From the NCBI RefSeq assembly GCF_036250065.1, contig NZ_CP109199.1, positions 7,812,083 through 7,876,082 on the forward strand: a stretch of DNA of 64,000 bases, written 5' to 3'. The position numbers were made by a program, and so were the translations under genes. The DNA comes from Micromonospora sp. NBC_01699 (GTDB lineage: Bacteria > Actinomycetota > Actinomycetes > Mycobacteriales > Micromonosporaceae). Shown here one piece after another: positions 11,866 through 63,844 of the stretch. Positions within the stretch are counted from its first letter, which is position 1. The number at the start of each line of letters is the position of its first letter. Under the pieces are notes generated by a model that ran no database searches, was not told the DNA's origin, and saw only the letters and a program-made list of their open reading frames with translations.

Positions 11866-11926
11866 GTTGATCATGAAGTTAGCGACAAAATTCAGGCTCG
11901 AAATCGTCGCTAACTTCATGATCAAC
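11866..11926. repeat. Palindromic intergenic repeat element, copy 1 (18-bp terminal inverted repeats GTTGATCATGAAGTTAGC / GCTAACTTCATGATCAAC around an inner hairpin). A 60-bp C-rich tract is at 11800-11860.
   Basis: Read directly from the sequence. Identical termini occur at the four other loci listed as features. Confidence 0.85.
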
Positions 11927-16370: not shown

Positions 16371-16431
16371 GTTGATCATGAAGTTAACGCACTCCCGAGC
16401 GTCAAAATCGGTTGTTAACTTCATGATCAAC
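16371..16431. repeat. Palindromic intergenic repeat element, copy 2, between the convergent AKR and thiolase genes. It is followed by a G-tract (GGGTGGGGGGTGGGGGGTGGGGGCGGGGGTGGGGG) at 16438-16490.
   Basis: The termini are GTTGATCATGAAGTTAAC / GTTAACTTCATGATCAAC. Confidence 0.85.
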
Positions 16432-23359: not shown

Positions 23360-23529
23360 GGGGTGGGGGGCTGGGGAGGGCAGTCTGGCCGACGGCGCCA
23401 GCGTGGACTGGGAACGCGGCTGAGGATCGCCTCATCAGCACCTGACCGCTGAGCCACAGGAGTGCGGCCGGACCCGTCAAGCGGGGTCCGGCCGCTTCCG
23501 CTTTCCCGGAGACCATGCCGCGAGCGCGG

Positions 23530-24303
23530 TCAGCCGCCGGCCGGACGGCGCGCGGGACCGTTGTCGACAAAGCGGAACGTGCTGCGCGGCGGAGCGTCGC
23601 CCAGCTCCTCCAGGATCAGACCGCGGGTCGCGGAGAACTGGAGGAACGCCGAGGAGTTGCTGATCGCGTACGCGTCCTTGCCGCTGGCGGTGATCGTGAA
23701 CCGCTGACCCGGATTGTCCGCGTCACAGGCCGCCGCCTCGACCGTCAGCGACTCCGACGTACCCGGGTTGAGCACCTGCCAGCAGGACGCCTCATCCGAG
23801 GCGGGGTGATTGTCGGGCTTGCCGTATGCCTTGATCAGGTACGTGTCACCGTCGAGCGGCGTCGGCACGAACAACTGACGTCCGCTGTCGTCGTCGACCT
23901 CGACCAGATCGCCGTCGAGCGACACCGCAGACTCGGACGCCTGTACGCGCACGATGGTGACCTCACGCGTACCCGAAAGCACGGGATCGGTCGCACGCCC
24001 GGGGATGGGCGGTGGTGGGGACAGCGACGGCGACACCGGTACGGAAACGGAGGGTCCGGCGGACGCGGGAGGGGCCGCGGGCGGACCCGTGTACGGCCGG
24101 TTGTCCGGCCGGGCCAGGGCGACGCCCGTGGTGAGCACGCCCACCAGCGCGACACCGAGCGTTGCCGTGGCGACGTGCCTCCGCTTACGCCGAGCGTCAC
24201 CGCGCTTGCGGATGTCGGCGGCGACGGTGGTGAGCCGGCCGGTACGGGCAGCGTGCGCGGCGATTGAACGCAGCCCGTCGTCGAGATGGTCGTCACGCAT
24301 CAC
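23530..24303 (-). CDS. Putative anti-sigma factor: a cytoplasmic N-terminus, one TM helix and a Pro-rich linker carrying a roughly 150-aa extracytoplasmic domain
   Basis: It overlaps the ECF sigma stop by 11 nt. The TM helix is ATLGVALVGVLTTGVALA. The C-terminal domain is paralogous to the lipoprotein at 25014..25708. Confidence 0.6.
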   Translation of the reverse strand: MMRDDHLDDGLRSIAAHAARTGRLTTVAADIRKRGDARRKRRHVATATLGVALVGVLTTGVALARPDNRPYTGPPAAPPASAGPSVSVPVSPSLSPPPPIPGRATDPVLSGTREVTIVRVQASESAVSLDGDLVEVDDDSGRQLFVPTPLDGDTYLIKAYGKPDNHPASDEASCWQVLNPGTSESLTVEAAACDADNPGQRFTITASGKDAYAISNSSAFLQFSATRGLILEELGDAPPRSTFRFVDNGPARRPAGG

Positions 24304-24805
24304 GGCCCCTCCCGCCCATGACGTACTGCTCGTTGCTGGTCAGGTGCTCGGCCAGGGCCCGGCGGCCCCGGGCGAGCCAGGTCTTGACCGTGTTGGCGGA
24401 GGTTCCGATCTCCGCCGCGATCTCGGCGACGCTGAGACCGACGAGATGGTGCAGGACGACGACCCTACGTTGATCGGCTGAGATCTGGCGCAGGGCCTGC
24501 ACCAGCGCCACGTGGTCGGGGTTGATCGGGTCGACATGGTCGTCGGTCACGTCCCGGCGATGAGCCCGGAGACGGTTCGCGGCCTTGCGCCACGCCGAGA
24601 CCGCTATCCGGTACGCGACCCGGCGCACCCACCCTTCGGGGCTTTCGCACTCACGCACCCGACTCCACCGATCCCACGCCCGCAGGTACGCCTCTGCCAC
24701 GGCATCCTCGGCCTCGGCGCGGTTGCCGACCATCGCGTACACCTGCCCCAGCACCCGCCGAGAGGATCCGGCGTAGAAGTCATCGAACTCCTCGGCGTTA
24801 CGCAT
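24293..24805 (-). CDS. ECF (sigma-70 family) RNA polymerase sigma factor
   Basis: Region 2 is DAVAEAYLRAWDRWSRV. Region 4 is LSVAEIAAEIGTSANTVKTWLARGRRAL. Confidence 0.85.
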   Translation of the reverse strand: MRNAEEFDDFYAGSSRRVLGQVYAMVGNRAEAEDAVAEAYLRAWDRWSRVRECESPEGWVRRVAYRIAVSAWRKAANRLRAHRRDVTDDHVDPINPDHVALVQALRQISADQRRVVVLHHLVGLSVAEIAAEIGTSANTVKTWLARGRRALAEHLTSNEQYVMGGRGRDA

Positions 24806-25013
24806 GTGCCATGTACTCCCACCCGACCGGACAACATCCGGCTGACCCAGTTACCCAGCGTACGGATTCGGTACACGCCTAGACCGTCATCGACTTCCGT
24901 CGAAGAGGGTAGGCGCCCGACACCGGCCGTCAGGCGTGGGGGTGGAGCGTTCGTGCGGTGTCAGGACGGCGACTCGATTCGCCGCCCCCTGACACCGGCG
25001 CGCTCGAACGTGG

Positions 25014-25708
25014 TCAGCCACCCGCCGGACGGCGCGCGGGGCCATTGTCGACAAAGCGGAACGTCGTACGCAGCGGCGCGTCGCCCAGTTCCTCCATGAT
25101 CAGGCCACGGGTGGAAGAGAACTGGAGGTACGCCGAGGAGTTGCTGATCGCGTACACCCCTTTGCCCTTTGCGGTGATGGTGAACCGCTGAGCCGGCTTG
25201 GCCTGGTCACAGACGGCCCCCTCGACCGTCAGTGGCGCCGACGTACCCGGGTTGAGCACCTGCCAGCAGGTCGGCTCGTCCGAGGCGGGGTGGTTGTTGG
25301 ACTTGCCGTACGCCTTGATCAGGTACGTGTCACCACCGAGCGGCGTCGGGACGAACAACTGCCGGCCACTGTCGTCGTCGGCCTCGCCCAACCGACCGTC
25401 GAGCGACACGCCGGACTCCGACGCCTGCACTCGCACGATCGTCACCTCACGCTTGCCCGACAGCACCGCGTCGGTCGAACCTCCCGGGACGGGCGGCGGC
25501 GCGACGGACGAATTCCCCGGGACGGGCGGCGGCGCGACGGACGGCGAGGCCGGTGCCGTGGCTGTGGCCGCCGGTGATGCCGTCACGGAAGCGGAGGCGG
25601 TGGGTCCGGCGGATGCGGTAGGGCCTGCGGGCGAACCGCTCTGGCACGCCACCAGCGCACCGGTGCACGCCAGCATCGTCGCGCCGGTCAGCCACTTCAC
25701 CTTGGACA
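25014..25708 (-). CDS. Lipoprotein carrying a paralogue of the anti-sigma factor extracytoplasmic domain
   Basis: Start ATG at 25706-25708 after GGAG. Signal and lipobox are MSKVKWLTGATMLACTGALVAC. The C-terminus (TIVRVQASESGVSLDG...RFVDNGPARRPAGG) is about 85% identical to the C-terminus of 23530..24303. The rest of track ORF 25014..26090 is spurious. Confidence 0.6.
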
Positions 25709-25865
25709 TGCCGTACTCCTCACACACACTGCCCGCAACTGTCCGCCGGGCGATCAACATGGACGCCACACCGGCCCTCATCGCGCCGACGCACCCCCAA
25801 CACGCCTGCCCCCACCCCCCGGTTTCAGAAACCCCAAAAAACTTCCCCCCACCCCGAAAACGCGC

Positions 25866-25925
25866 GTTGATCATGAAGTTAGCGCGCCCCGGGCGGCAAA
25901 AATCCGCGCTAACTTCATGATCAAC
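25866..25925. repeat. Palindromic intergenic repeat element, copy 3, immediately downstream of the giant ATPase gene stop. A C-rich tract is at 25795-25860.
   Basis: The termini are GTTGATCATGAAGTTAGCGCG / CGCGCTAACTTCATGATCAAC. Confidence 0.85.
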
Positions 25926-25939
25926 GAGGCGATGGCGGG

Positions 25940-28900
25940 TTAGGGGTGGGTGGCTCGGGTTATGGCGGATTCGATGGCGGCTATGCGGTCGGCCAGGAGG
26001 CCGAGGGCGCCTACGGCTCGGGTGATGGGGTCGTCGGAGGTGCCGCCCAGGGCGCGTTCGCGCAGGTAGCCGGTTTTTACCTCGGTCCATCGGCGGGACT
26101 GGCCGGGGGTCAGACGGCCCCGCAGGTCGGCCAGCTTGAGGAGGTTCGCCTCGGCTCCCGCTGCCAGGGTCTGCGCCTCACCGAGGTAGTGGTCGTCGAT
26201 GACCCGTTCCAGCTCCTCGTCGTTCATCACCGGCACGATTCGCTCGGTCAGCTTGTTCATGTTCCGGTAGGAACCCTGGAGCAGGAACGGTGGCTCCGTA
26301 CGCGACGCGTCCGCCTGCGCCGCCGAGGCGATGTACGCCCGGTTGTTCGCCAACACCACCTCCTGCACCCGGACCAGTTTGCGCAGCACCGAAAGGATCT
26401 GGTCCAACTCGACCGCCGCGTACGGGTGGGTGAGCTGGTCGGCGCGGACCGTCTCGTCGCCACGGGCCAGCCGGACCAGCAGTTGCAGGTCACCACGGTC
26501 CCGTCCGGCGAGCGGTGCCAGCACCGGGTTCGAGGTGATCGCGTTCTCCAGGTAGCTGAGCGCGAACACCTCCTCGCGGCCGGAGAGCACGTCACCGAGG
26601 TTCCACACGTCCGCCCGGTTCGCCAGCATGTCCGGCACCCGGAACCGCCGCCCCGACTCCGTGTACGGGTTGCCCGCCATGCACACCGCGAACCGCTTTC
26701 CGCGCAGGTCGTAGCTGCGGGTACGGCCGTCCCAGACGCCCTCCATCCGGCGCTGCCCGTCACAGAGCGAGATGAACTTCTGCAACAGCTCGGGCGAGGT
26801 GTGCTGGATGTCGTCCAGGTAGAGCATGACGTTGTTGCCCAGCTCCAACGCGAACGAGATCTTCTCCACCTCCTGCCGGGCGGTGGCGTTCGGTGCCTCG
26901 GCCGGGTCGACCGAGGTGACCGCCGAACCGAGCGCCGGCCCGTTCACCTTGACGAAGACCAGGCCGAGCCGGCTGGCGACGTACTCCATCAGGGTTGTCT
27001 TGCCGTAACCCGGTGGGGAGATGAGCAGCAGCAGGCCCATCTGGTCGACCCGTTTGCCGTCACCGGTCGCGCCGATCTGGCGGGCCAGGTTGTCCCCGAT
27101 CAGCGGCAGGTAGACCTCGTCCAGCAGCCGGTTGCGGACGAACGAACCGAGCACCTTCGGCTGGTGCTCGGCCAGGCGCAGCCGCTTGCGCTCGCTGGCC
27201 ACCAGCTCGTTGCGCCGCTTCTGGTACGCCCGGTACGCCGGCACCCGCACGGTCCGGAACTCACCGGTACGCGACAGCAGCTCGTCCATCCGTACCGACA
27301 GCCGGGCGTCGGTGATCCGGGGATGGGTGGCGAGCAGCCCGGTCACCTCGGCGGTCAGGGTGGCCGCCGACTCGTGCCGGGGCAGACCCGAGCCGCAGAG
27401 TTCGATCGCCACCGCCTCCGGCAGGTCGTACGCGTCCAGCGCCGGGCCGCCGCCGACCGGTTCGGACAGATCCGCCGTACGCAGGAACGACTCCAGCCAC
27501 GCTTCGACCAGTTGGTGCCGGGCGGCCAGGTCGTCGCCGAGTGCCCGCAGGTCCTCCTCGTACTCCTGCACCGACTTGGAGGCGGGGCCGCCGAGGGTGC
27601 GCCGGAACCGGTCGAGCAGCGCGCGGGCACCGGCGCCGGTGACGAAGCCGAACGGCGCCCGGGACAGCTCCTCGAACAGGTACTCGGCGGCGAGCGGGGC
27701 CGCCGAGGCGTGTTCCGGCAACCCGGCCGTACGCAGGAACCGCTCCGCCGCGTCGGCCAGCTCCGTACGGAGTTCCCCGATCGCGTCCGTGGCGCCGAAC
27801 GCGGTCCGGGCCCTGGCCAGCGAACCGGCCCGGGTGGACCAGGCGGTACGGGTCGGCTCGTCCACGCCGAAGGTCCAGAACAGTTGTGCGGCGGCGCGGG
27901 CGCCCGGCCGGAAGCGCAGCAGACCGGCACCGTCGTAGAGGCGCAGCAGCGGCTCCAGGATCGCCGCCGCGTCGTGGTCGTGGATGCCGCGTTCGTAACC
28001 CTCGTCGTACCGGCCCTCGGCGACCCGGCGGACCAGGTCGAGCAGCGCCGGCCGGCTCACCGCCGCCTTGTGCAACGCCTCCAGGGTCAGTCCGCCGACG
28101 CCCGCCCCGGCGTCGGTGAGGATCGAGGTGGCCAGGTGTTCGGCCCGGCTCACCTCGGGCGACTCGGAAACCAGAAGCTGGTCCCAGAAGGCGCTGGTCT
28201 GCTGGAAGCTCTCGTCCCGGATCGGTGACCGGTAGTCGGTGCCGGTGACCGCGACCGCCAGCCGGCCGTCCTGCGGCACCAGCGTGACGTCGACCTCCTG
28301 GGTGTTGACCGAGAAGCTGTGCCGGCCGAGCCGAATCGTCGCACCGCCGTCGAGGTACAGGTCCTGCTGGTCGCGCAGGGCCCGGCCCGCCTCCTGCCGG
28401 GCGGCCTTGATCCGCCCGGCGAGCTCCTCGGCCCGGACCGGGTCGCCCAGCGTACGCAGCTCGTCGGCGACCCCGCGCAGCTTCGCCACCATCGGATCGG
28501 AGGCGAAGTACGTGTTGATCTCGTCGATCGAGCGCAGCCCGGAGAGCCGGCGGTGCACGCTGACCAGGATCCGCTCGGCCGAGCCGACCAGCCGGTCGGA
28601 GCGGCGGGCCCGCTCGTCCAGCAGGGCCTGCTTGCGGGCGGAGAACGCCTCGTAGATGTCGGCCCGGCGGGTGCTCAGCTCGGCGAGGAAGTCGTCGAAC
28701 TCGCCGAACCGGGACTCCAGGTTCTCCACCTGGAGCAGCAGCCGGCCCAGTTGCTCGTCACAACGCTCGGCCGTGTCGGCGACCGCCAGCGCACCGGTCA
28801 CCGCCTGCCCGAGCAGCGCGAACTCGGCCGCGAAGCCGGCCCGCCCCTCGGCGGTGAGCAGCTGGGCGCGACGGCCGTCGAGGGTGGCCCGAGCCCGGTT

Positions 28901-30994
28901 GACCGCGCCGAGCACCTCGCCGATGCTGGCCAGGATCCCGGTCCGTACGGTCGCGTCGCCGATCTCCAGCGAGCCGACCACCTCGGTCACCACCTGTAGG
29001 CCCTCGGCCTGCTCGGCGAGCCGGTCGCGCGGCGGGGCGGCCTCGGCCACCGTGCCGATCTCGGCGGCGCCGGTACGCAGCCGCTCCACCTCGGCCTGGT
29101 AGTCGCCGAACGCGTCGTCGCGGCGCAGGAAGGCGACCACCCGCTGCCCGGTGGAGGTCAGCTCGGCGGCGAGGTCGACACCGAGCGCGTCGATCCGGGC
29201 CAGGTCGACATACCGCAGGTCGCGCAGGGTCACGAGTTGACCCTGCGCCTGGCGGAGGCCGGCGAGCTGGCGTACCCACTCGTCGGCGGTGCGCGGGGCT
29301 TCGCCGCGTACCTGGCGGACCAGGGTCGCGGTGCGGGCGGCGGCCTCGTCCAGGGTGGCGGCGGCGTGCGCGGTGAGCGACTGGACCTTCTCGAACTCGT
29401 CCAGCACCTGTTTGCCGCTGGCGCGTACCTCGCTCAGTGGGGCACGCAGGTCACCGAGGTCGGCCTCACCGAGCCAGTGGTAGTGGTCGAAGATCCGGGC
29501 ACAGGCCGTGATCAGCGCCTCGAACACCCCGAGGGTCGGTGTCATCTCGTTGACCATCCGGGCCACCGACAGACAGTCCGAGATTCCGCGTACGAGGTCC
29601 GCGTTGCCGACCCGCTCCAGCGGACCGGTGCCGACCGGCTGTCCGGCGGCGTAACTGTCGGACAGGTACGGCGTCTGCCACACCTGCATCGGGTGCACCC
29701 GGGTCGGCTCGTCCGAGGTGGCCCGGAAGACCACCAGCGTCCCGTCGTCGAACAGCGAGTAGCCGTGACACGGAACCGGGGTCGCGACCTCCTTGCGGAT
29801 CACGTTGTACGGCAGCAGCAGCGTTCGCCCGGCACCTCGGGCGTGGAAGACGTAGAGCACGTCCTCGCCGTTGGTCGACCGGATGGTCCGCTCGAACTCC
29901 AGCCCCTCGGTGTCGGTGTCGAAGGTCCGGCTGACCCCGGTGGCCAGGTAGTAGCCGCCGGGGAAGATGATGCCGTGGTCCTCGGGCAGCCGCTGGCAGG
30001 CCTGCCCGATGCCGTCGAGCCGGACCACCTCCTTGGTCCTGGTGTTGAAGACCAGGTGCCGCCACCGCGTCTCCTTGTACGGCCGCATCCGCAGCAGGAT
30101 CAGCGGGCCGATCCGGGCGTGCTGGACGTCGGCGTCGGCGAGGCTCTGCAACGGCTCGTCGACCGGCTCGGAGTAGATGCCCTCGCCGGTCTCGGTGTTG
30201 TTCTCCAGCTTGACCGTGAGCGTGCCGCCGACCGTCTCGACAAAGACCTCGTCCTCGATCGAGATGTGCGGGTGCCGGCCGAGGATGTGGTCGTCGCGGG
30301 TGGTCGGAATCCACTCGAAGTCGTGCGACGGCGGGAAAACATGGTCGCGCTCGCCCCGGTTGTCCAGGTACGTGACCCTGCCGTCGACGTCGACCTGCCA
30401 CCGCAACACCCGGATGTCCTCGGTACGCGGCCCGGTCTGGAAGACCGCCAGCAACCGCCCGTCCAGCCGTCGCAACTGCACCAACCGGGTCTCCCGGTAG
30501 TAGCGGTACAGCTCGCCGAAGTCGCGTTCGAACTGCGGGTCGCGCAGCAGCCCGGCGAGCTGCGCCGGATCGACGTCGTCGAACCGGAACGCGTCCTCGT
30601 CGTCGCCGGAGGGGTCGTCGGTGGCGGCCCGGCCACGGGCGAAGTGGTGCAGCGAGAAGACGTCGTCCACGGTCGTCTCGGGCTTGAGCCCGATGAAGAC
30701 GTTGTAGCCGAACAGCATCAGGCCGCCGACCGAGACGATGTCCCGGGGTACGCAGTTGTTCCGGGTCCGGATCCGCTCGGTGCCGATCAGCCGCAGCTCG
30801 GTGCCGCCGAAGACCTCCAACCGGCGGCTGTTCAGCCACTCGGCCCGCCGAGCCAGCTCCCCGGCCCGCTCGGCGAGCCGGGCCCGCAACACCTCGTACG
30901 TGCCGGCGTCGACTCCGCCGCCGGTGGCCGCCCCGGCTCCGGCATCCGGCTCAACCGTGCTGGTCACCGTGCCGGCGGTCGACGGGTCACTCAC
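25940..30994 (-). CDS. Giant (1684 aa) multidomain protein with a C-terminal AAA+ ATPase of the MoxR/McrB/dynein-like (AAA_5) type. It is the last gene of the NfeD-flotillin operon.
   Basis: Walker A is LLLISPPGYGKTTLMEYV. Walker B is VMLYLDDIQ. Sensor is FAVCMAGNPYTESG and the arginine region is PDMLANRADVWNLGD. The N-terminal roughly 1250 aa are uncharacterised (a beta-rich region then long helical segments). The GTG start at 30992-30994 overlaps the flotillin stop at 30987-30989. Confidence 0.7.
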   Translation of the reverse strand: MSDPSTAGTVTSTVEPDAGAGAATGGGVDAGTYEVLRARLAERAGELARRAEWLNSRRLEVFGGTELRLIGTERIRTRNNCVPRDIVSVGGLMLFGYNVFIGLKPETTVDDVFSLHHFARGRAATDDPSGDDEDAFRFDDVDPAQLAGLLRDPQFERDFGELYRYYRETRLVQLRRLDGRLLAVFQTGPRTEDIRVLRWQVDVDGRVTYLDNRGERDHVFPPSHDFEWIPTTRDDHILGRHPHISIEDEVFVETVGGTLTVKLENNTETGEGIYSEPVDEPLQSLADADVQHARIGPLILLRMRPYKETRWRHLVFNTRTKEVVRLDGIGQACQRLPEDHGIIFPGGYYLATGVSRTFDTDTEGLEFERTIRSTNGEDVLYVFHARGAGRTLLLPYNVIRKEVATPVPCHGYSLFDDGTLVVFRATSDEPTRVHPMQVWQTPYLSDSYAAGQPVGTGPLERVGNADLVRGISDCLSVARMVNEMTPTLGVFEALITACARIFDHYHWLGEADLGDLRAPLSEVRASGKQVLDEFEKVQSLTAHAAATLDEAAARTATLVRQVRGEAPRTADEWVRQLAGLRQAQGQLVTLRDLRYVDLARIDALGVDLAAELTSTGQRVVAFLRRDDAFGDYQAEVERLRTGAAEIGTVAEAAPPRDRLAEQAEGLQVVTEVVGSLEIGDATVRTGILASIGEVLGAVNRARATLDGRRAQLLTAEGRAGFAAEFALLGQAVTGALAVADTAERCDEQLGRLLLQVENLESRFGEFDDFLAELSTRRADIYEAFSARKQALLDERARRSDRLVGSAERILVSVHRRLSGLRSIDEINTYFASDPMVAKLRGVADELRTLGDPVRAEELAGRIKAARQEAGRALRDQQDLYLDGGATIRLGRHSFSVNTQEVDVTLVPQDGRLAVAVTGTDYRSPIRDESFQQTSAFWDQLLVSESPEVSRAEHLATSILTDAGAGVGGLTLEALHKAAVSRPALLDLVRRVAEGRYDEGYERGIHDHDAAAILEPLLRLYDGAGLLRFRPGARAAAQLFWTFGVDEPTRTAWSTRAGSLARARTAFGATDAIGELRTELADAAERFLRTAGLPEHASAAPLAAEYLFEELSRAPFGFVTGAGARALLDRFRRTLGGPASKSVQEYEEDLRALGDDLAARHQLVEAWLESFLRTADLSEPVGGGPALDAYDLPEAVAIELCGSGLPRHESAATLTAEVTGLLATHPRITDARLSVRMDELLSRTGEFRTVRVPAYRAYQKRRNELVASERKRLRLAEHQPKVLGSFVRNRLLDEVYLPLIGDNLARQIGATGDGKRVDQMGLLLLISPPGYGKTTLMEYVASRLGLVFVKVNGPALGSAVTSVDPAEAPNATARQEVEKISFALELGNNVMLYLDDIQHTSPELLQKFISLCDGQRRMEGVWDGRTRSYDLRGKRFAVCMAGNPYTESGRRFRVPDMLANRADVWNLGDVLSGREEVFALSYLENAITSNPVLAPLAGRDRGDLQLLVRLARGDETVRADQLTHPYAAVELDQILSVLRKLVRVQEVVLANNRAYIASAAQADASRTEPPFLLQGSYRNMNKLTERIVPVMNDEELERVIDDHYLGEAQTLAAGAEANLLKLADLRGRLTPGQSRRWTEVKTGYLRERALGGTSDDPITRAVGALGLLADRIAAIESAITRATHP

Positions 30995-33014
30995 CCGTAC
31001 CCCGTTGCCTCGGGCTGCCGCTCAGTGCGGCGATCGGCTGATCGGCCAGGCCGAGCTGCTGGGCCGCCCGCAGCAGGTCCTGCAACTTGTCCGAGTTGGA
31101 CCCGCCGGCCTTGATCTGCTGCAACAACCACGCCGACACGGTCAGGTTCTGTACGTCACCGGTGTTCAGCGAGCCGAGTATCCGGGTCAGGTCGGCGGGG
31201 AAGCTCGCCTCGCCGTCCAGCCACGGCTTGGCCAGGCTCTGCGCGACCTCGGAGTGCTGCACGAAGCCGTCGACGCTCTTGCCGAGGGTGATCGAGTTGA
31301 CCAGCCGGTCGAAGAACATGGTGTCCCCGCCGACGATGTCGATGTTCGCCTTCTCCAGCCCGGCGGCGAGCACCATCGCCTGCGACTCGGCCACCCGGTG
31401 CTGCGCGTTGATCTCGGCCAGCCGGAGGTCCTTCTCCGCCTCCAACCGCAGCCGGAACTCCTCGTGCCCCCGGCTGGCGTCGGTCAGCGCGGCCATCGCG
31501 GCGGCCTTCTCGGTCAGACCCTCCGCCTCGCCCTTGAGCTTGTCACGCAGGGCGTCGGCCAGGACCAGCGCCTTCTCGCGTTCGACCATCGCCTCGGCCC
31601 GGCCCTCCTTCTCGATGGCCTCGGCGCCGCGCTCGCGTACCTGGACCTGGGCCAGACCGGTCGCGGCGGCCTCGGCCTGCGCGCCCTCGGCCAGCCGGAT
31701 CTTGGCGCGGGTCTCCAGTTCGGCGGCCTGCTGCCGGGCCTCGGCCAGGACCAGGTTCTCCCGCGCCTTGTGCTTGGCCGCCTGCTCCGACGCCTCGGCC
31801 GCCTTGATGTCCTTGACCAGGGCCTCCTGCGCCTCCGCCTCGGCCTGGATGATCACCGCCTGCCGGGTCCGCTCGGCCTCCTCGACCACCCGCAGGCGCT
31901 TGATGTTCTCCTCCTGCTCGGCGACGGTCTTGTCGACCGCTATCCGCTCCCGGATCACCTCGGCGATCGCCCGCTTCTCGACCTCGACCTCTTTGTCCTT
32001 GGAGATGGTGGACAGCTCGGTCTCCCGCTGCCGGCCGATCACCTCCAGCATCCGGTCCTTCTCGATCCGCTCCGACTCGATAGCGATGACCCGTTCCCGG
32101 TTCTTCTCCGCGACCGCGATCTCCCGAGCCTTGTTCTCCTTCTGGATGCCCAACTGCTCGTCCGTACGGATGTGCGCGGCTTCCGAGCGGAGCCGCTCCT
32201 CCGCCCGTACCTTGGAGATCTCCGCGTCCTCGCGGGCCCGCAGCGTCTCGATCTCGCGATTCTGCTTGAGCTCGGCGTCGGCCTGGCGTCGTTCCAGCTC
32301 CAGGATGGCCTCCCGGGCGTCGACGTTCTGCCGGGTGATCTCCTTCTGCTCGTTGCGCTGGAACTCGTTGGTACGGATGTGCTCGATCGCGGTCAGCTCG
32401 GTGATCTTCCGGATGCCCTGGGCGTCGAGGATGTTCGCCGCGTCCAGTTTGGACAGTGGGGTCTGCTCAAGGAAGTCGATCGCCGCGTCCTCCAGGCTGT
32501 AGCCGTTGAGGTCGGTGCCGATCACCCGGATGATCTGATCCCGGAACTCGTTCCGCTTGGTGTAGAGGTCGACGAAGTCGAGCTGCTTGCCGACCGTCTT
32601 CAGCGCCTCGGAGAACTTCGCGTTGAACAGTTCCTGCAACGTCTCCCGGTCACTGGCCCGCGCGGTGCCGATCGCCTGCGCCACCTTGATCACGTCTTCG
32701 GTGGTCTTGTTCACCCGGACGAAGAAGGTGATCCTGATGTCTGCCCGGATGTTGTCCCGGCAGATCAGGCCCTCCTGGCCGGTCCGCTCGATGTCGATCG
32801 TCTTCACCGAGATGTCCATGATCTCGGACTTGTGCAGCACCGGCAGCACGACCGCACCGGTGAACGTCACGTCCACCCGGCGGACCTTGGAGATGATCAG
32901 CGCCTTGCCCTGTTCGACCTTCCGGAACAGGCGGCTGACCAGGAAAACCACGCCGATCGCGACGAGCAGGACGACGGCCAGGAGCACGCCGAACCCGGTG
33001 GTGATCACATCCAT
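30987..33014 (-). CDS. Flotillin-like SPFH/band-7 protein (YqiK/FloT-like) with a long Glu/Ala-rich coiled coil
   Basis: N-terminal TM helix (FGVLLAVVLLVAIGVVFLV). The SPFH domain is QGKALIISKVRRVDVTF...VLHKSEIMDISVKTIDIERTG...ITFFVRVN. An EA-rich heptad region follows. RBS GAAGGA precedes ATG 33014. Confidence 0.85.
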   Translation of the reverse strand: MDVITTGFGVLLAVVLLVAIGVVFLVSRLFRKVEQGKALIISKVRRVDVTFTGAVVLPVLHKSEIMDISVKTIDIERTGQEGLICRDNIRADIRITFFVRVNKTTEDVIKVAQAIGTARASDRETLQELFNAKFSEALKTVGKQLDFVDLYTKRNEFRDQIIRVIGTDLNGYSLEDAAIDFLEQTPLSKLDAANILDAQGIRKITELTAIEHIRTNEFQRNEQKEITRQNVDAREAILELERRQADAELKQNREIETLRAREDAEISKVRAEERLRSEAAHIRTDEQLGIQKENKAREIAVAEKNRERVIAIESERIEKDRMLEVIGRQRETELSTISKDKEVEVEKRAIAEVIRERIAVDKTVAEQEENIKRLRVVEEAERTRQAVIIQAEAEAQEALVKDIKAAEASEQAAKHKARENLVLAEARQQAAELETRAKIRLAEGAQAEAAATGLAQVQVRERGAEAIEKEGRAEAMVEREKALVLADALRDKLKGEAEGLTEKAAAMAALTDASRGHEEFRLRLEAEKDLRLAEINAQHRVAESQAMVLAAGLEKANIDIVGGDTMFFDRLVNSITLGKSVDGFVQHSEVAQSLAKPWLDGEASFPADLTRILGSLNTGDVQNLTVSAWLLQQIKAGGSNSDKLQDLLRAAQQLGLADQPIAALSGSPRQRGTGE

Positions 33015-33028
33015 CAGTGGTCCTTCTG

Positions 33029-33661
33029 TCAGTGGGGGTGGTAGTCGGGGTCACCGGTGGCCTCCACCGGCAGCACCCAGAAGAACTCGCGGTCGGCGTC
33101 GTAGTCGTAGATGAGCGCGCGACTGCCGGAGCCGAGGTTGTCGCCGCTGGCCTGCCGGACCTGGATCACCGCCGACGAGCCGTCGGGGGAGGTCACCTCG
33201 GCCTGGCCGAAGTCGACACTGACCAGCCCGGTACGGACCACGCAGACCCGACCGACGAAGGCGTTACGGGAAACGGTCTGATCGGTCTGGAAGAACTGTC
33301 GCAGTGGCCGTACCAGCAGTCGGGTGACCAGCCAGCCGCCGGCCAGGGCGAACAGCAGCAGCACCGTGGAGAGCACCGCCGCCAGCGCACCGGACCAACC
33401 GGGCTGTTCCAGCAGCACCGTGCCGGCCAGGCTGACGAACCAGGCCACCGCGATCAGCAGGGAGAGGACAACCGTGGCCGGCGGTCCGCCGAGCCCGAGC
33501 CCGGCCAGGAATCCGGCCGCCCCGGCGGGCTCGGCAGCCGCGTCGTCGTCCAGTCCGACCACCCCGAACAGCACCAGCGCCCAGTAGCCGACCACCACCA
33601 CGAGCAGGAAACTGAATAGTGCGGTCGGGAAACCGAGCGCCACGTCCAGGAACTCACCCAT
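33029..33661 (-). CDS. NfeD/YqiJ-like membrane protein (multi-TM N-terminus plus C-terminal OB-fold), partner of flotillin
   Basis: 210 aa with four hydrophobic segments and a C-terminal beta-rich segment (RVCVVRTGLVSVDFGQAEVTSPDGSSAVIQVRQA). It lies 14 nt upstream of the flotillin gene. This is the classical yqiJ-yqiK arrangement. Confidence 0.65.
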   Translation of the reverse strand: MGEFLDVALGFPTALFSFLLVVVVGYWALVLFGVVGLDDDAAAEPAGAAGFLAGLGLGGPPATVVLSLLIAVAWFVSLAGTVLLEQPGWSGALAAVLSTVLLLFALAGGWLVTRLLVRPLRQFFQTDQTVSRNAFVGRVCVVRTGLVSVDFGQAEVTSPDGSSAVIQVRQASGDNLGSGSRALIYDYDADREFFWVLPVEATGDPDYHPH

Positions 33662-33863
33662 CGAACTTCGTCGACCTCCCCCACGCTGCCAACAGCCGCG
33701 CGGAGCCCCCTGAGACAGAGCTGGATGTCAATCCGTTCGGCGCGACAGGCTGATCATGGCACGGGGTGTCAACGCAGGATGCCCGGTCGTTACACCGAAC
33801 GGACGATCCGGGAAGACGATCGGTCAGCGGTGCCGATCGGGGTGGCCGACCGGCACCAACCTC

Positions 33864-34550
33864 TCAGACTTCCGCCTTGTCGTACACCGTGGCGGTGGCG
33901 GTGACCGTACGGGTCTCGACGTACGAGCCGTGCTTGGCGGTGATCTTGTAGGTGTGCTTCTCGATGCTGCCGGGAGTGCCGCCGCAGGAGAAGGTGAAGG
34001 TCTCCTTGCTCTGCGCGGGATAGGTGTCGTAGAGACCCGGCCCGTCCACCGCCAGCTCCACCTGATCCGCCCCGGTGACCTTCCACTCGATCACCAGCGG
34101 CGTCGCCTCCACCGGGAACTCCGAGGTGCCCTGCGGGCAGGTCGGCTTCTGCGCGATCCTGAACTGCACGATCTTCACGGGTGAGCTGGCCGCGCCGGGA
34201 GCCTTGCCGGTGGGGGTGGGCAGCGGCTTGCCCGGTTGACCGGCGGAGGTGGCCTCGGGGCTGGTGCCGGGATCCACGGCGGACGCCGTCGGGACCGCAC
34301 CGAGCCCGGCCGACGAACTGGCGGCGGGCTGACCCGCCGACGAAGCCGGAGCCCGGTCCTTCGACGAACACCCGGCCGCCCCGGCCACGACCAGCGCACC
34401 CGCCAGCAGCGGCAGCGTCAGCCGGCCGACCCTGCTCCGCGCCACCCGCCGGCCGTACCTGGTGGCGGGACCGCCACCGGCACTCTGCCCGCTCGTGCGC
34501 TGCTCGTCGGTCGGCTGCCCGACGTACCGGCTGGCCACGATCGTGTTCAT
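33864..34550 (-). CDS. Hypothetical secreted lipoprotein
   Basis: Start ATG at 34548-34550 (MNTIVASRY...). The lipobox is LLAGALVVAGAAGCSS. It has a Ser/Ala/Pro-rich linker and a C-terminal beta-rich domain. The track ORF 33864..34838 is longer. Confidence 0.5.
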   Translation of the reverse strand: MNTIVASRYVGQPTDEQRTSGQSAGGGPATRYGRRVARSRVGRLTLPLLAGALVVAGAAGCSSKDRAPASSAGQPAASSSAGLGAVPTASAVDPGTSPEATSAGQPGKPLPTPTGKAPGAASSPVKIVQFRIAQKPTCPQGTSEFPVEATPLVIEWKVTGADQVELAVDGPGLYDTYPAQSKETFTFSCGGTPGSIEKHTYKITAKHGSYVETRTVTATATVYDKAEV

Positions 34551-34659
34551 GGTCGCTCCCTGCGGAACTCGCCCCGGCCGATGATCGACCGGGTGTCGGA
34601 TCCCAAGGTAAGGACCGGACCGGCTTCGGCGAATCCCGCTTTCGTGCCGTTGCCGCCAA

Positions 34660-35914
34660 CTAGCGACGAGGCGGGGTGACCCGACCCTCGATCGCCGCCA
34701 GCGCGATGTCCCGTCGATAGTGCGAGTCGGCCAACCCGATCCCCTCGACCAGGGCGTACGCCGCGTCCCGCGCGACCTCCAGGTCCGGGCCGATCGCCGT
34801 ACCGCAGAGGACCCGGCCCCCGGCGGACACCAGGGCACCGTCTTCCTCGCGGCGCGCGGTGCCGGCGTGGATGATGCCCGACCGCTCGGCGCCCGTGATC
34901 ACGTCGCCGGTGCGGGCCGACTCGGGATATCCGGCCGAGGCCACCACCACCGCGACCCCGGCACCGCCGCGCCAGGTCAGCGGCGGGTGCGCGGCGAGCG
35001 TCCCGGTCGCGGCCGCGTGCAGCAGGCCGGCCAGCGGCGTCTCCAACAGCGCGAGTACGACCTGCGTCTCCGGATCCCCGAAGCGCGCGTTGAACTCGAT
35101 CACCTTGGGCCCGCTGGCGGTGATGGCCAGGCCGACGTAGAGCAGCCCGGAGAACGGGGTGCCGCGTCGGCGCATCTCCGCCAGGGTCGGCTCGACCACC
35201 CGGGCCATCACGTCCTCGACCAGGTCCGGTGCCGCCCACGGCAGTGGCGCGTACGCCCCCATGCCGCCGGTGTTCGGACCGGTGTCGCCGTCGCCGACCC
35301 GCTTGAAGTCCTGGGCCGGCAGCAGCGGCAGCGCCGCCTCCCCATCGGTCACCACGAACAGCGAGACCTCGGGTCCGGCCAGATATTCCTCGACCACCAC
35401 GCGGTTGCACTGGGCGGCGTGTTCGAGCGCGTGGGTCCGGTCCTCGGTCACCACCACGCCCTTGCCGGCGGCCAGCCCGTCGTCCTTCACCACGTACGGC
35501 GGGCCGAACTCGTCCAGCGCGCGAGCCACCTCGTCCGCATCAGTGCAGGTGTACGCGCGAGCGGTGGGCACCCCGGCAGCCGTCATGATCTCCTTGGCGA
35601 ACGCCTTGGAGCCCTCCAACTGGGCAGCCGCCCCGGACGGCCCGAAGACCGCGATCCCCTTGGCCCGAACCGCGTCGGCGACCCCGGCGACGAGTGGCGC
35701 CTCCGGCCCGATCACCACCAGGTCGGCCCCGGTCTCCACGGCCAGCCCCGCGACCGCCCCCGGATCAACCGCGTCAATCGCCCGGCATTCCGCCACAGCC
35801 GCGATCCCCGGATTCCCCGGCGCCGCAACCACCGCCTCAACCGCCGAGTCACCCGTCAACCCGAGCACGAGCGCATGCTCCCGCCCACCACCACCCACCA
35901 CAAGTACGCGCACG
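34660..35914 (-). CDS. purD: Phosphoribosylamine--glycine ligase (PurD)
   Basis: VRVLVVGGGGREHALV... ATP-grasp ...KVIEFNARFGDPETQ. GTG start at 35912-35914. The upstream part of track ORF 34660..36609 is spurious. Confidence 0.9.
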
Positions 35915-35949
35915 ACCCCAGATCCTACCCACCCACCCACCCCCCGCTC

Positions 35950-36010
35950 GTTGATCATGAAGTTAGCAACGCCTCCAGGCGCATTTTCCGTTGCCAACTT
36001 CATGATCAAC
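35950..36010. repeat. Palindromic intergenic repeat element, copy 4, between the divergent purD and AbiEi/DUF559 genes. It is flanked by a C-tract (35885-35945) and a roughly 90-bp G-tract (36011-36100).
   Basis: The termini are GTTGATCATGAAGTTAGCAACG / CGTTGCCAACTTCATGATCAAC. Confidence 0.85.
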
Positions 36011-36095
36011 GGGGCTGGGGTGGGGGTTATCCACAGGGGGGGTGGGGGTTGTGCACAGGGGGTGGTGGGAGGGGGTGGAAGGGGGGTGGGTCGGG

Positions 36096-37024
36096 GGATG
36101 GATGGGATGACGTTGGTTCGGCGGGTGGCGGCGGGGCAGGACGGGGTGGTGACTCGGGAGCAGGCGTTGGCCGCGGGGTTGACGGTGCGGGAGATCGATC
36201 GACTGTGTCGCAGCCGCGAGTGGCGGAGGCTGGCTCGGGCGGCGTACCTGGTGGATCTGACGCCGAGTCCGGTGGCGGCGCGGCGAGCCCGGATCCGGGC
36301 GGCAGTCGCCTCGTTCGGGGAGCTGGCGACGGCGGTGCTCGGGACCTCGGCCGAGTTGCACGGGTTGGCGGGACTGCGGCCGGATGCGCGGATCCACGTC
36401 TCCGTACCCGGCCCGGCCGCCCGACCGCTGCGATCGAAAGATCCGGCCGTGGTGGTGCACCAGCTCGTGATCCCGGCCGGGCAGATCGGCACGGTCGCCG
36501 GGATCCGAACCACCACCGCGACCCGTACGGCCGCCGACCTGGCACTCCGGGTGGACCGCTTCGCGGCCGTGTCGCTGCTGGACTCGGCTCTGCACCAGGG
36601 CTCGATCACCGAGCCGGACCTGCTGGTCGTACGCGCGCTGCTCGCCCGGCGCCGAGGTGCGGTGGCCGCCCGGCGTCACCTGGCCGAGGCGGACGGGCGG
36701 GCCGAGTCCCCACTGGAGACCCGGGTACGCCTGCGTTGCGTGGACGGTGGCGTACCACCGGACGCACTACAGCACCCGGTACGCGACGACGACGGCCACC
36801 TGCTGGCCGTGGGCGATCTCGCCTGGCTCCGCGAACGGATCATCGGCGAAGCCGACGGCGCGCTCGTACACGCCACCCCGGAAGCCCTCTACCGCGACCG
36901 CCGCCGCCAGAACCTGATCGCCAACGCCGGCTGGCGCGTACTCCGCTTCACCTGGGCCGACACCCTGAACCCCACCTACATCCCCACCACCATCCGCGCC
37001 GCCCAGACCCACCCGGCCCGTTGA
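36096..37024 (+). CDS. Protein with an AbiEi-type N-terminal domain and a DUF559 (Vsr-endonuclease-like) C-terminal domain
   Basis: MDGMTLVRRVAAGQDGVVTREQALAAGLTVREIDRLCRS... C-terminal ...NLIANAGWRVLRFTWADT. It lies exactly between repeat copies 4 and 5. Its TGA stop is inside copy 5. Confidence 0.65.
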
Positions 37025-37080
37025 CCATGAAGTTAGCGACGGTTCGGAGCACGTTTCCGGTCGCTAACTTCATGATCAAC
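37020..37080. repeat. Palindromic intergenic repeat element, copy 5 (GTTGACCATGAAGTTAGCGACGG...CCGGTCGCTAACTTCATGATCAAC). It is followed by three 21-bp tandem repeats GGCGGTCAGAGGAGGGRGTGG at 37087-37150.
   Basis: Direct reading. It overlaps the DUF559 gene stop codon. The downstream tandem repeats run into the purA 3' end. Confidence 0.85.
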
Positions 37081-37129: not shown

Positions 37130-38476
<1,347 letters not shown>

Positions 38477-61252: not shown

Positions 61253-63844
61253 TCAGCCGGCGGAGACCGCCAGCGCGTCCTTGCTCTCGGCCAGGTCGAC
61301 CCGGACCACGTCACCGTCGCGGATGTCACCGGCGAGCAGTGCTCGGGCGAGCCGGTCGCCGATGGCCGACTGGACCAGTCGGCGTAGCGGGCGGGCACCG
61401 TAGATCGGGTCGTACCCGTGCTGGGCCAGCCAGTCGCGGGCCGGGTCGGCGACGACCAGCGCGAGCCGCCGGTCGGCCAGCCGCCGGCGCAGCCGATCGA
61501 GCTGAATGTCCACGATGGACCGCAGATCGTCGCCGGTCAGAGCCGCGAAGACCACTATGTCGTCGAGCCGGTTGAGAAACTCCGGCTTGAAATGGGTACG
61601 GACGACCGCGAGCACCGCGTCGCGCCGCTGCTCGTGGGTGAGGGTCGGGTCGGTGATCAGCCCCGAGCCGAGATTGGAGGTGAGGATCAGGATCGCGTTG
61701 CGGAAGTCGACGGTGCGTCCCTGACCATCGGTGAGCCGGCCGTCGTCGAGCACCTGGAGCAGCACGTCGAAGACGTCCGGGTGGGCCTTCTCCACCTCGT
61801 CCAGCAGCACCACCGAGTACGGTCGCCGACGCACCGCCTCGGTGAGCTGGCCGCCCTCCTCGTACCCGACGTAGCCGGGCGGGGCACCGACCAGGCGGGC
61901 CACCGAGTGCTTCTCGGCGTACTCGCTCATGTCGATGCGGACCATGGCCCGCTCGTCGTCGAAGAGGAACTCGGCCAGCGCCTTGCCCAGCTCGGTCTTG
62001 CCGACACCGGTGGGGCCGAGGAAGAGGAAGCTGCCGGTGGGCCGGTCCGGATCGGCGACACCGGCCCGCGCCCGGCGGACCGCGTCGGCGACGGCGCCGA
62101 CCGCCTCGGTCTGCCCGACCACCCGCGAACCGAGGGACTCCTCCATCCGCAGCAGCTTGGCGGTCTCGCCCTCCAGCAGCCGGCCGGCCGGGATACCGGT
62201 CCAGGAGGCGACGACGGCGGCGATGTCGTCGGCGCCGACCTCCTCCTTCAGCATCGCCCCGGCGGCCTGGAGTACGGCGAGCTCCGCCTCGGCCCTGGCC
62301 AGTTCGCCCTGCATGGTGGGGATGCGGCCGTAGCGCAGCTCGGCGGCCAGCTCCAGCTCGCCGTCGCGCTCGGCCCGCTCGGCCTCGCCGCCGAGCCGTT
62401 CCAGCTCCTCCTTGGCGGTGGACAGCCGGGTGATGTGCTCCTTCTCCAGCCGCCACCGGTCGCTGAGCGCGGTGAGCTGCTCGCGCTTGTCGGCCAGTTC
62501 CTTGCGCAGCCGTTCGAGGCGCTCGGCGGAGGCGGCGTCCGGCTCCTTGGCCAGCGCCATCTCCTCGATTTCGAGCCGGCGGACCGCCCGCTCGATCTCG
62601 TCCACCTCGACCGGCCGGGAGTCGATCTCCATCCGTAGCCGGGAGGCGGACTCGTCCACCAGGTCGATCGCCTTGTCCGGCAGGAAACGCTCGGTGATGT
62701 ACCGGTCGGACAGCGACGCGGCGGCGACGAGCGCGGCGTCGGTGATCCGTACGCCGTGGTGGACCTCGTAGCGCTCCTTGAGGCCGCGCAGGATGCCGAT
62801 GGTGTCCTCGACGGTCGGCTCACCGACCAGCACCGGCTGGAACCGGCGCTCCAGCGCCGCGTCCTTCTCGATGTGCTCGCGGTACTCGTCGAGCGTGGTC
62901 GCGCCGACCATCCGCAGCTCACCCCGGGCCAGCATGGGCTTGAGCATGTTGCCGGCGTCCATCGAGCCCTCGCCCTTGCCCGCGCCAACGACGGTGTGCA
63001 GCTCGTCCAGGAAGGTGATCACCTGGCCGTCGGAGCCCTTGATCTCCTCCAGCACCGACTTGAGGCGTTCCTCGAACTGTCCCCGGTACTGCGCGCCGGC
63101 CACCATCGCGCCCAGGTCGAGCGAGACCAGCTTCTTGTTCCGCAGCGACTCCGGTACGTCACCGGCGACGATGCGCTGGGCCAGGCCCTCGACGATCGCG
63201 GTCTTACCGACGCCGGGCTCGCCGATGAGGACCGGGTTGTTCTTGGTACGCCGGGAGAGCACCTGGATCACCCGGCGGATCTCCGAGTCGCGCCCGATCA
63301 CCGGGTCGATCTTGCCTGCGCGGGCGCTGGCGGTCAGGTCGACGCCGTACTTCTCCAGGGCCTGGTAGGTCTGCTCGGGGTCGGCGGTGGTCACCCGACG
63401 GTCGCCACCGCGTACGGTCGGGAACGCCGCGACCAGGTTCTCCTCGGTGGCACCGGCGGTCTTGAGCGTCTGGGCCACCACGCCGCCCACCCGGGCCAGG
63501 CCGGCGAGCAGGTGCTCGGTGGAGGTGTACTCGTCGCCGAGCGGCCGGGCGATCTGCTCGGCCGCGCCGATGGCGTTGGCGAACTCGCGGGAGAGACTGG
63601 GTTCGGCGACGCTGGCGCCGCGCGCGGCGGGCAGGTTCTCCACCGCTCGTGCGGCGGCCCGGCGGATGTCCGCCGGGTTGGCGCCCACGGCGCGCAGCAG
63701 GCCGCCGGCGGTCGAGCCGCCGGTGTCCAGCAACGACAGCAGTAGGTGCCACGGTTCGACGGTGGCGTGGCCGCGCTGGTTGGCGATGGCGACCGCGCCG
63801 GTGATGACTTCGCGGCTCTTGGTGGTCAGGCGTTCGGCGTTCAT
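61253..63844 (-). CDS. clpB: ATP-dependent chaperone ClpB
   Basis: 863 aa with an N-terminal Clp_N domain and two AAA+ modules ([18 protein letters not shown]; [18 protein letters not shown]). Confidence 0.9.

Follow-up and report, generated by a model that had tools for sequence, protein, structure and literature searches.

A flotillin-linked giant AAA+ ATPase in Micromonospora sp. NBC_01699: a widespread operon type with a possible role in remodelling membrane scaffolds

We describe three consecutive genes in a 64,000-nucleotide stretch of the genome of Micromonospora sp. NBC_01699 (contig NZ_CP109199.1, positions 7,812,083 to 7,876,082; this whole stretch is called the window below, and positions are given in its own numbering). 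The genes encode a small membrane protein of the YqiJ/YuaF type, a flotillin of the YqiK/FloT type, and a giant ATPase of the AAA+ class. Together they are one operon, a tight and conserved unit, and this operon is genuine, ancient and widespread among bacteria. With moderate confidence, we read the ATPase as an ATP-driven remodeller docked on a flotillin/YqiJ membrane scaffold, which would remodel the flotillin cage or its clients and whose work would be tied to envelope-stress (Psp) biology. Pfam, RefSeq and one comparative-genomics paper have already recorded operons of this type, which is therefore not new in kind.

The operon and its linkage across genomes

The three genes lie on the minus strand (Table 1), and a third-position GC content of 0.88-0.93 supports all three reading frames. 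A 14-nt spacer separates the first gene from the flotillin gene, with GAAGGA ahead of the flotillin ATG, and the TGA of the flotillin gene and the GTG of the ATPase gene share an 8-nt overlap, GTGAGTGA. A preliminary description of the locus, made from the sequence by a model, had read the three open reading frames (ORFs), their coordinates and these junctions correctly. The RefSeq entry from the strain is 100% identical to the ATPase over its 1684 amino acids; thus the GTG start has been called independently, by the Prokaryotic Genome Annotation Pipeline (PGAP).

In order to describe the linkage, we fetched 80 loci and searched them with the window proteins, and we added L001 and L083-L086; 81 loci have more than 2.5 kb of DNA upstream. 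In 81 of these 81 loci the ATPase gene is immediately preceded, on its own strand, by a flotillin orthologue, and the same holds for all five of five further loci, which brings the total to 86/86. The loci span Actinomycetota, Myxococcota, Acidobacteriota, a Clostridia metagenome-assembled genome, Planctomycetota, Bacteroidota, Gammaproteobacteria and Deinococcota. The linkage of the ATPase and flotillin genes is far beyond chance. The gene-neighbourhood check that the preliminary description had called for thus came out in its favour, as did its view of the three genes as a tight conserved unit: we found neither an ATPase living apart from flotillin, nor a well-annotated function of another kind, nor a mis-joined N-terminus.

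Distant members, from Gimesia (Planctomycetota), Hymenobacter and Seonamhaeicola (Bacteroidota), Reinekea, Pseudomonas fluorescens pQBR103 and L092 (Gammaproteobacteria), and Deinococcus, keep the same arrangement, with ATPases 38-49% and flotillins 42-52% identical to the window proteins. The family is large. The N-terminal 720 amino acids find 935 clusters (at 50% identity) at E <= 1e-3 and 311 at E <= 1e-30, the full-length members having 1600-2000 amino acids, and when each species was represented by one genome, a relative was encoded in at least 594 of the 600 candidate stretches. Members were also met in a plasmid collection, on the 425-kb megaplasmid pQBR103 (H10) and in tractable Gammaproteobacteria, among them Vibrio campbellii (H11) and Proteus mirabilis (H7, H8); those records, at about 4 Mb, are evidently chromosomes filed as plasmids.

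The linkage is one-directional. Escherichia coli yqiJ-yqiK and Bacillus subtilis yuaF-floT are pairs of an NfeD-like protein and a flotillin, and no ATPase gene was found downstream of yqiK in E. coli. Therefore the claim that the ATPase is an obligate third member stands in one sense only: in the loci searched, the ATPase always comes with flotillin, but a flotillin pair may do without the ATPase. In two loci a further gene is inserted between the flotillin and ATPase genes, namely a 210-amino-acid protein without known identity in Seonamhaeicola (L086, 7296-7928) and a DUF2059 protein in L092 (6485-6976).

The overlap of stop and start is less constant than the order of the genes. With start codons chosen heuristically, overlaps of -8 or -4 occur in 12 non-Streptomyces actinomycete loci, whereas gaps of 40-260 nt separate the two genes in Streptomyces, myxobacteria and others. 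On these gene calls the overlap is a lineage-specific trait and not a universal one. Stoichiometric production, which the preliminary description took as a probable consequence of the overlap, does not follow from it.

The arrangement has a published counterpart. Ravi et al. 2024 (mSystems 9:e00847-23, PMC11237479; bioRxiv 2020) described operons that join CesT/Tir-PspA with three further proteins, as well as abbreviated operons without PspA. For Dokdonia donghaensis (around ANH61663.1), their table gives the series YqiJ-YuaF -> Band-7+coiled-coil+Flotillin -> beta-propeller+coiled-coil+AAA-ATPase. The window operon encodes the same three proteins with the same domain architectures, that is, a YqiJ/YuaF-type protein with three transmembrane segments, a band-7/flotillin protein, and a propeller/coiled-coil AAA+ ATPase, and their order on one strand is identical to that of the Dokdonia entry. 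It differs from the full form in lacking the CesT/Tir-PspA dyad, the polyamine genes and phospholipase D; no such dyad adjoins the operon, and across the window there was no match to PspA (sought with two distant queries) or to DUF2170. Since the dyad is missing, we regard the window operon as the abbreviated form. The statement that the module was undescribed is thereby incorrect, for the PspA-less form as well. The published study is purely computational, and it limits its reading to 'membrane dynamics / chaperone-like'.

Our own distant loci reproduce the published full form. Of nine annotated non-actinobacterial loci, five carry pspA directly upstream of the triad, or at most five genes upstream, on the same strand. 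DUF2170/YjfI accompanies it in three of them (L085, pQBR103 and L092) and CesT_Tir_1 in the other two (L084 and L091). The order CesT_Tir-PspA-triad is seen in Hymenobacter and in L091, and the order DUF2170-PspA-triad in Reinekea; L092 is like the latter, with three extra genes between pspA and the triad. The megaplasmid pQBR103 has yjfI-pspA-rhomboid-yjfK-yjfL-yjfM-GspS-like-triad, and carries yjfK/L/M/C-like genes. Besides the rhomboid protease gene of pQBR103, rhomboid and phospholipase D (PLDc_2) genes lie downstream in L092 (coordinates listed for such neighbours: L092 12323-13875 and L088 3879-4433).

In the literature, we found no experimental study of any member of the operon, no papers on DUF3686 or PF12458, and nothing relevant that links 'DNA repair ATPase' with flotillin or SPFH. 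A paper on StlP of Streptomyces concerns a different SPFH protein, SCO2834, and the survey of conflict systems by Kaur et al. 2020 does not cover the module.

Architecture of the three proteins

According to the preliminary description, some 1250 N-terminal residues of the ATPase bore no motif recognisable by eye. In fact, this region matches two Pfam families, DUF3686 with 742.7 bits against a cut-off of 25 (E 1.4e-223) and DUF7902 with 105.9 bits against a cut-off of 26 (E 1.2e-30), and its fold can be predicted. An AlphaFold2 (AF2) model of residues 1-1200, built on an alignment of 48 sequences, has a predicted local distance difference test (pLDDT) score of 83. It shows a helix (32-62), a beta-rich part (68-440), long helices (460-880), a small beta domain (886-924) and a helical domain from residue 950. 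Foldseek matches the N-terminal domain to generic beta-propellers (Sec12, WD40, clathrin terminal domain) with E of about 1e-5. A second model, of residues 851-1684, has a pLDDT of 89. For the small beta and helical middle domains no informative structural match was obtained; the invariant residues of this part are G890, F894, E944, R950, Y1000, G1003, H1005 and D1008. No hydrophobic segment is present in the ATPase. It is thus predicted to be a soluble, cytosolic protein composed of a beta-propeller, coiled-coil helices, a conserved middle domain and a single AAA+ module.

Pfam detects no nuclease, protease or other effector domain in the ATPase. Searches of the PDB by sequence with all three proteins returned only P-loop-level matches for the ATPase and none for the flotillin or the small protein, and searches of NCBIfam and PADLOC gave nothing meaningful. 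The ATPase is more than 70% identical across actinomycete orders, and its sequence conservation suggests strong purifying selection. A full-length architecture of 1600-1900 amino acids recurs in hundreds of homologues; the N-terminal part is therefore not a mis-joined neighbouring gene, a possibility that the preliminary description had raised. One apparent fusion of NfeD1b_N to DUF3686 (P0188), a candidate Rosetta-stone protein, was rejected, since its Arg/Pro-rich linker looks out of frame and the protein probably reflects read-through in the gene calling of a high-GC contig from a metagenome.

The AAA+ module calls for closer description. Its Walker A sequence, PPGYGKTT, conforms to GxxGxGK[ST] and is invariant, and Walker A, sensor-1 and the MLANRAD motif stay unchanged or almost unchanged even where overall identity falls to 30%. 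The Walker B motif, however, ends in DD (D1394-D1395) and not in the canonical DE. It thereby departs from the hhhhDE pattern, with its catalytic glutamate, that is expected of MoxR/AAA_5 proteins. As the two aspartates vary little or not at all in each of three alignments, the DD Walker B is, judged by alignment, an unusual invariant feature of the family. The earlier claim of a complete and probably active set of motifs is therefore correct for Walker A, sensor-1 and the Arg motif, and has to be qualified for Walker B. In structure, the module most resembles the MoxR remodellers CbbQ and NorQ together with dynein and midasin, at a sequence identity of 12-15%. Weak RuvB matches are confined to the P-loop and score 17.9-19.4 bits against cut-offs of 282-299; RuvB is also among the Foldseek matches.

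The flotillin has an N-terminal membrane anchor (its one hydrophobic segment, residues 1-34), an SPFH/Band_7 domain (Pfam Band_7, residues 32-175, E 7.5e-7) and a long coiled-coil region. It is homologous to E. coli YqiK, to which it is 29% identical (E 1e-38) in an alignment that extends through the coiled-coil region, and it is about 120 amino acids longer (675 versus 553). Pfam shows no 'Flot' C-terminal domain in it. Conservation decays past about residue 600, and a sharply conserved C-terminal docking tail is not seen. Across phyla, the ATPase-linked flotillins retain 42-52% identity, compared with 29% to the unlinked YqiK of E. coli, and they form a separate and better conserved orthologue group.

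The small protein, of 210 amino acids, has hydrophobic segments at residues 3-39, 51-86 and 87-118, followed by a beta-rich C-terminal domain. Depending upon the method, its relationship to YqiJ is visible or not. Pairwise BLAST against E. coli YqiJ is not significant (E 0.18) and a family profile is needed: a profile of 53 orthologues (A3) matches YqiJ with an hhalign probability of 75.6% (E 2.4e-5), colinear over 120 columns. YqiJ occupies the same position in its operon and has nearly the same size (209 amino acids). An orthologue in L090 (26% identity, E 1.5e-16) also has a weak match to PF21001, YqiJ_N. The protein itself matches no Pfam family, NfeD included, even at E 10, and neither NfeD nor YqiJ was found by Pfam in the 53 orthologues at E 0.01. 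The YqiJ/YuaF-like label is thus reasonable, with moderate support, and the YqiJ half of the earlier 'NfeD/YqiJ-like' label may stand, whereas an NfeD label in the Pfam sense (PF01957) is unproven. It should be kept in mind that YuaF and YqiJ have been treated as NfeD homologues in SPFH2 operons (Hinderhofer et al. 2009). Of the 81 loci of the first set, 69 have the YqiJ-like gene, and in L031-L033 and L035 only a shortened version occurs, which matches the membrane part.

Transcription signals, flanks and repeats

The intergenic region upstream of the first gene is 200 nt long and contains, 91 nt ahead of that gene, the motif TTGACACCCCGTGCCATGATC. In the form TTGAC-N4-CGTGYCA-N1-2-ATC it is shared by four Micromonosporaceae loci, each time ahead of the orthologous operon, and its conservation is restricted to Micromonosporaceae. 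The pattern TTG[AC]C-N3-6-[CG]GTG[TC]CA-N0-3-ATC occurs 4 times in the 3.9 Mb of fetched loci, both strands counted, in each case at this place. We consider the motif a candidate promoter or operator. It does not fit the -35/-10 spacing of sigma-70, and a scan of the upstream region for the sigma-70 consensus found nothing.

A perfect 21-bp hairpin followed by U-runs lies 15 nt past the stop codon of the ATPase gene, and is probably the terminator of the operon. A simple terminator scan missed it because its loop is longer than 8 nt. Folded as a 151-nt RNA, it has a free energy of -71.2 kcal/mol (z = -4.9).

This hairpin is one of five copies in the window of a palindromic intergenic element of about 60 nt, with the consensus CGTTGATCATGAAGTTAGCG, a variable loop of 18-20 nt, and CGCTAACTTCATGATCAACG, flanked by CCCACCCC / GGGGTGGG tracts. 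Its arm occurs 8 times at up to 3 mismatches, compared with 0.01 expected, and in the copy at 16371 the two arms have changed in a compensatory manner. Among 92 fetched loci the element is found only in L003, a Micromonospora relative of 93% identity, in which it does not follow the ATPase gene. In appearance the element is a repeat family of the REP-like or terminator type. Rfam has no match in 25000-34900, the stretch that was scanned, which holds one of the five copies.

The flanks of the operon are housekeeping and regulatory genes: purA, purD, a gene for an extracytoplasmic function (ECF) sigma factor, and an acyl-CoA dehydrogenase gene. On the upstream side are a 324-amino-acid ORF without known identity and purD. 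Synteny with purA and purD is retained across Micromonosporaceae. The neighbours outside the triad (the 324-amino-acid ORF, the downstream genes, and clpB/hspR) are not conserved beyond close relatives.

Several further features of the window may be recorded. A small gene about 2.4 kb upstream of the operon, flanked by purD and purA and encoded on the opposite strand, has weak matches to AbiEi_4 and DUF559/MTES_1575, and one palindromic element lies at its 3' end. A 300-nt direct repeat of 85% identity marks two paralogous genes, neither of which has a Pfam match; one is directly downstream of the ECF sigma factor gene and is possibly an anti-sigma factor, and the other is directly downstream of the ATPase operon. 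A plus-strand ORF that overlaps the latter is probably spurious. The window also contains clpB, at a distance of about 28 kb. Nocardiopsis gilva has dnaJ-hspR(MerR)-clpB directly upstream of the triad, and in Glycomyces clpB is about 1 kb downstream of the ATPase gene (clpB coordinates are listed as 1535-4153 in L001 and 15916-18495 in L052). This proximity may reflect a loose heat-shock neighbourhood in some actinomycetes, or mere synteny.

Table 1. The operon, its signals and its surroundings in window coordinates; AF2, AlphaFold2; ORF, open reading frame
Feature	Position	Strand	Basis or remark
Gene 1, YqiJ/YuaF-type membrane protein, 210 amino acids, ATG start	33029-33661	minus	ORF and translation
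Gene 2, YqiK/FloT-type flotillin, 675 amino acids, ATG start	30987-33014	minus	ORF and translation
Gene 3, giant AAA+ ATPase, 1684 amino acids, GTG start	25940-30994	minus	ORF and translation
Overlap of flotillin TGA and ATPase GTG, 8 nt	30987-30994	minus	read from sequence
DUF3686 (PF12458), residues 46-506	29477-30859	minus	Pfam
Beta-propeller core, residues 68-440, after helix 32-62	within DUF3686 region	minus	AF2 strands
Long-helix/coiled-coil region, residues 460-880	28355-29617	minus	AF2 helices, longest 58 residues
DUF7902 (PF25472), residues 627-710	28865-29116	minus	Pfam
Small beta domain (886-924) and conserved helical domain (950-1280)	27155-28339	minus	AF2 models
AAA+ core	26585-27058	minus	Pfam AAA and AAA_5, residues 1322-1445, above cut-offs
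Walker A PPGYGKTT, residues 1327-1334	26993-27016	minus	
Walker B LYLDDIQH	26801-26824	minus	
Sensor-1 MAGNPYT	26660-26680	minus	
Arg motif MLANRAD	26609-26629	minus	
Upstream motif, candidate promoter or operator	33752-33772	minus	aligned in Micromonosporaceae
Hairpin with U-runs, probable terminator	25866-25925	minus	inverted-repeat search
Palindromic element, five copies	11866-11926, 16371-16431, 25866-25925, 35950-36010, 37020-37080		
purA	37130-38416		operon flank
purD	within 34660-36609		operon flank, upstream side
ECF sigma factor gene	24293-24805		operon flank
Small gene, weak AbiEi_4 and DUF559/MTES_1575 matches	~36100-37024	plus	between purD and purA
Direct repeat, 300 nt	23521-23820 and 25005-25304		85% identity
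Direct repeat, second pair	24026-24087 and 25576-25637		
Paralogue after ECF sigma factor gene	23530-24303	minus	no Pfam match
Paralogue after ATPase operon	~25014-25710	minus	no Pfam match
ORF, probably spurious	25198-25920	plus	
clpB	61259-63832	minus	

What the ATPase may do

The reading to which we incline can be set out as a series of steps. The flotillin, like other SPFH proteins, would oligomerise into a large cage at the cytoplasmic side of the membrane. The ATPase would be recruited to the flotillin/YqiJ assembly through its propeller and coiled-coil part and would oligomerise through its AAA+ module. ATP binding, and probably slow hydrolysis, would then drive the assembly, disassembly or other remodelling of the flotillin scaffold, or of the proteins that it holds, while the membrane is under stress or repair. 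The scheme agrees with the topology: the small protein has three hydrophobic segments, the flotillin has one, and the ATPase has none. Also in its favour are the invariant gene linkage, the frequent presence of the YqiJ-like gene, the separate orthologue group of the linked flotillins, the strong conservation of the ATPase, the operon boundaries, the recurrent association with PspA envelope-stress genes, and the published reading in terms of membrane dynamics. The predicted architecture would suit it too: a propeller for binding, long helices for spanning a distance, and a MoxR-like AAA+ module for oligomerising and remodelling.

There is precedent for pairing an SPFH scaffold with an AAA+ machine. 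In FtsH-HflK/C, an AAA+ protease is enclosed by an SPFH cage, and the scaffold is functionally coupled to the machine. Together with CbbQ and NorQ, FtsH-HflK/C is the nearest analogy to the window operon, and it is the best precedent for the pairing. The differences are clear, however: unlike FtsH, the window ATPase has neither a protease domain nor a membrane anchor and belongs to another AAA+ clade, and it is operon-linked to flotillin and not to HflK/C. Compared with CbbQ and NorQ or with dynein and midasin, it is a single AAA+ module fused to about 1280 N-terminal residues, with low sequence identity and DD in place of DE.

Several observations weigh against the remodelling scheme. Because the Walker B motif is DD and not DE, robust hydrolysis is uncertain. 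ATPases of the MoxR class usually act with a VWA partner, and the locus encodes none; nor was the VWA family found among the neighbours in any annotated locus. With two distant PspA sequences as the only queries, pspA was not detected in the 64-kb window. Upstream of flotillin, the YqiJ-like gene is absent from 11 Streptomyces loci (L037, L038, L040, L046, L054, L060, L061, L062, L064, L067 and L078) and from one Polyangiaceae locus (L077), so that a strict three-part complex is not universal; since the ORF is missing in a Streptomyces subgroup, the small protein is there either dispensable or encoded elsewhere. Finally, physical interaction, oligomeric state, ATPase activity, substrate and stress role are each inferred from genomic context and predicted structure, and all functional support comes from these two sources.

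It is important, therefore, to weigh the scheme against other explanations of the same data. Since the family is often encoded beside PspA, a bacterial relative of ESCRT-III, Vps4-like recycling of a membrane polymer is a natural analogy. The ATPase might then act chiefly on PspA, as a motor for its disassembly and recycling, with the flotillin/YqiJ cage as the membrane platform. PspA is indeed a frequent neighbour, but the invariant neighbour is flotillin (86/86) and not PspA (5/9), and neither in the window nor in any further actinomycete locus that we examined does pspA adjoin the operon. Moreover, the closest AAA+ clade is MoxR/dynein and not the classic Vps4/katanin, and no MIT-like ESCRT-III-binding domain was identified. 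We therefore think it unlikely that PspA is the chief target, while giving the idea more than passing weight.

The Walker B motif suggests another possibility, namely that the ATPase is a nucleotide-dependent scaffold or switch, in which ATP binding would drive oligomerisation, or coiled-coil tethering of flotillin cages, with little or no hydrolysis. In essentially all family members the catalytic glutamate is replaced by aspartate (LYLDDIQH), and the long helices, which take up roughly 420 residues, point to a spacer or tether. The D2 ring of NSF offers a parallel, as a non-hydrolysing ring with an altered Walker B that uses ATP structurally. On the other hand, the invariant sensor-1 Asn, Arg motif and Walker A Lys amount to a constraint beyond what is usual for binding alone, and in some P-loop NTPases an aspartate can be the catalytic base. 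On balance, a scaffold or switch of this kind seems improbable to us.

The preliminary description also entertained a defence machine, which one may picture as an anti-phage or abortive-infection system with a membrane SPFH sensor that triggers a large NTPase effector. Conflict systems often have large multidomain NTPases with repeat-domain sensors; one copy of the operon is on a megaplasmid (pQBR103), a phospholipase D gene is near some loci, and the window has its AbiEi_4/DUF559 gene at no great distance. Yet PADLOC-DB 2.0 matches only IetA, with E 0.004-0.008 over 29 P-loop residues, and has no match for the flotillin or the small protein. Neither 50,697 phage records nor IMG/VR contain a relative. 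The flanks are purA, purD, the ECF sigma factor and acyl-CoA dehydrogenase genes, in a synteny kept in Micromonosporaceae, and the ATPase lacks any effector domain (nuclease, protease or other) by Pfam. The high identity across actinomycete orders indicates vertical, strongly constrained inheritance, unlike that of patchy, fast-evolving defence genes. A role in defence is thus very unlikely.

Least credible of all, with hardly any weight in our view, is a literal DNA repair ATPase, for although Pfam (in describing PF12458) and RefSeq (in naming the product) call it that, and RuvB appears among the P-loop and Foldseek matches, the resemblance to RuvB goes no further than a P-loop that scores far below its cut-offs, and neither a DNA-binding or nuclease domain nor a conserved repair-gene neighbour was found. 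We found no support for the name 'DNA repair ATPase', which is most likely a misnomer.

We return, then, to remodelling on a flotillin/YqiJ scaffold, of which a bolder version can be stated. In this version, which we put forward tentatively and rate as possible rather than probable, the beta-propeller/coiled-coil AAA+ protein is the missing energy source of bacterial flotillin microdomains, a dedicated ATP-driven machine that opens, closes or recycles SPFH cages, and possibly also the PspA/ESCRT-III polymers on them. If this were true, flotillin scaffolds in a large share of soil and marine bacteria would not be passive but actively remodelled, and the name 'DNA repair ATPase' would be mistaken in thousands of annotations.

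The role of bacterial flotillins and the dynamics of SPFH cages are still debated, and an ATPase that, across eight phyla, is never separated from flotillin gives a strong experimental handle on both. The family is available in tractable hosts, including Streptomyces, Myxococcus, Corallococcus, P. fluorescens with pQBR103, Proteus mirabilis and Vibrio campbellii. The ATPase-flotillin operon also bears on the question of how membrane repair of the PspA type is energised.

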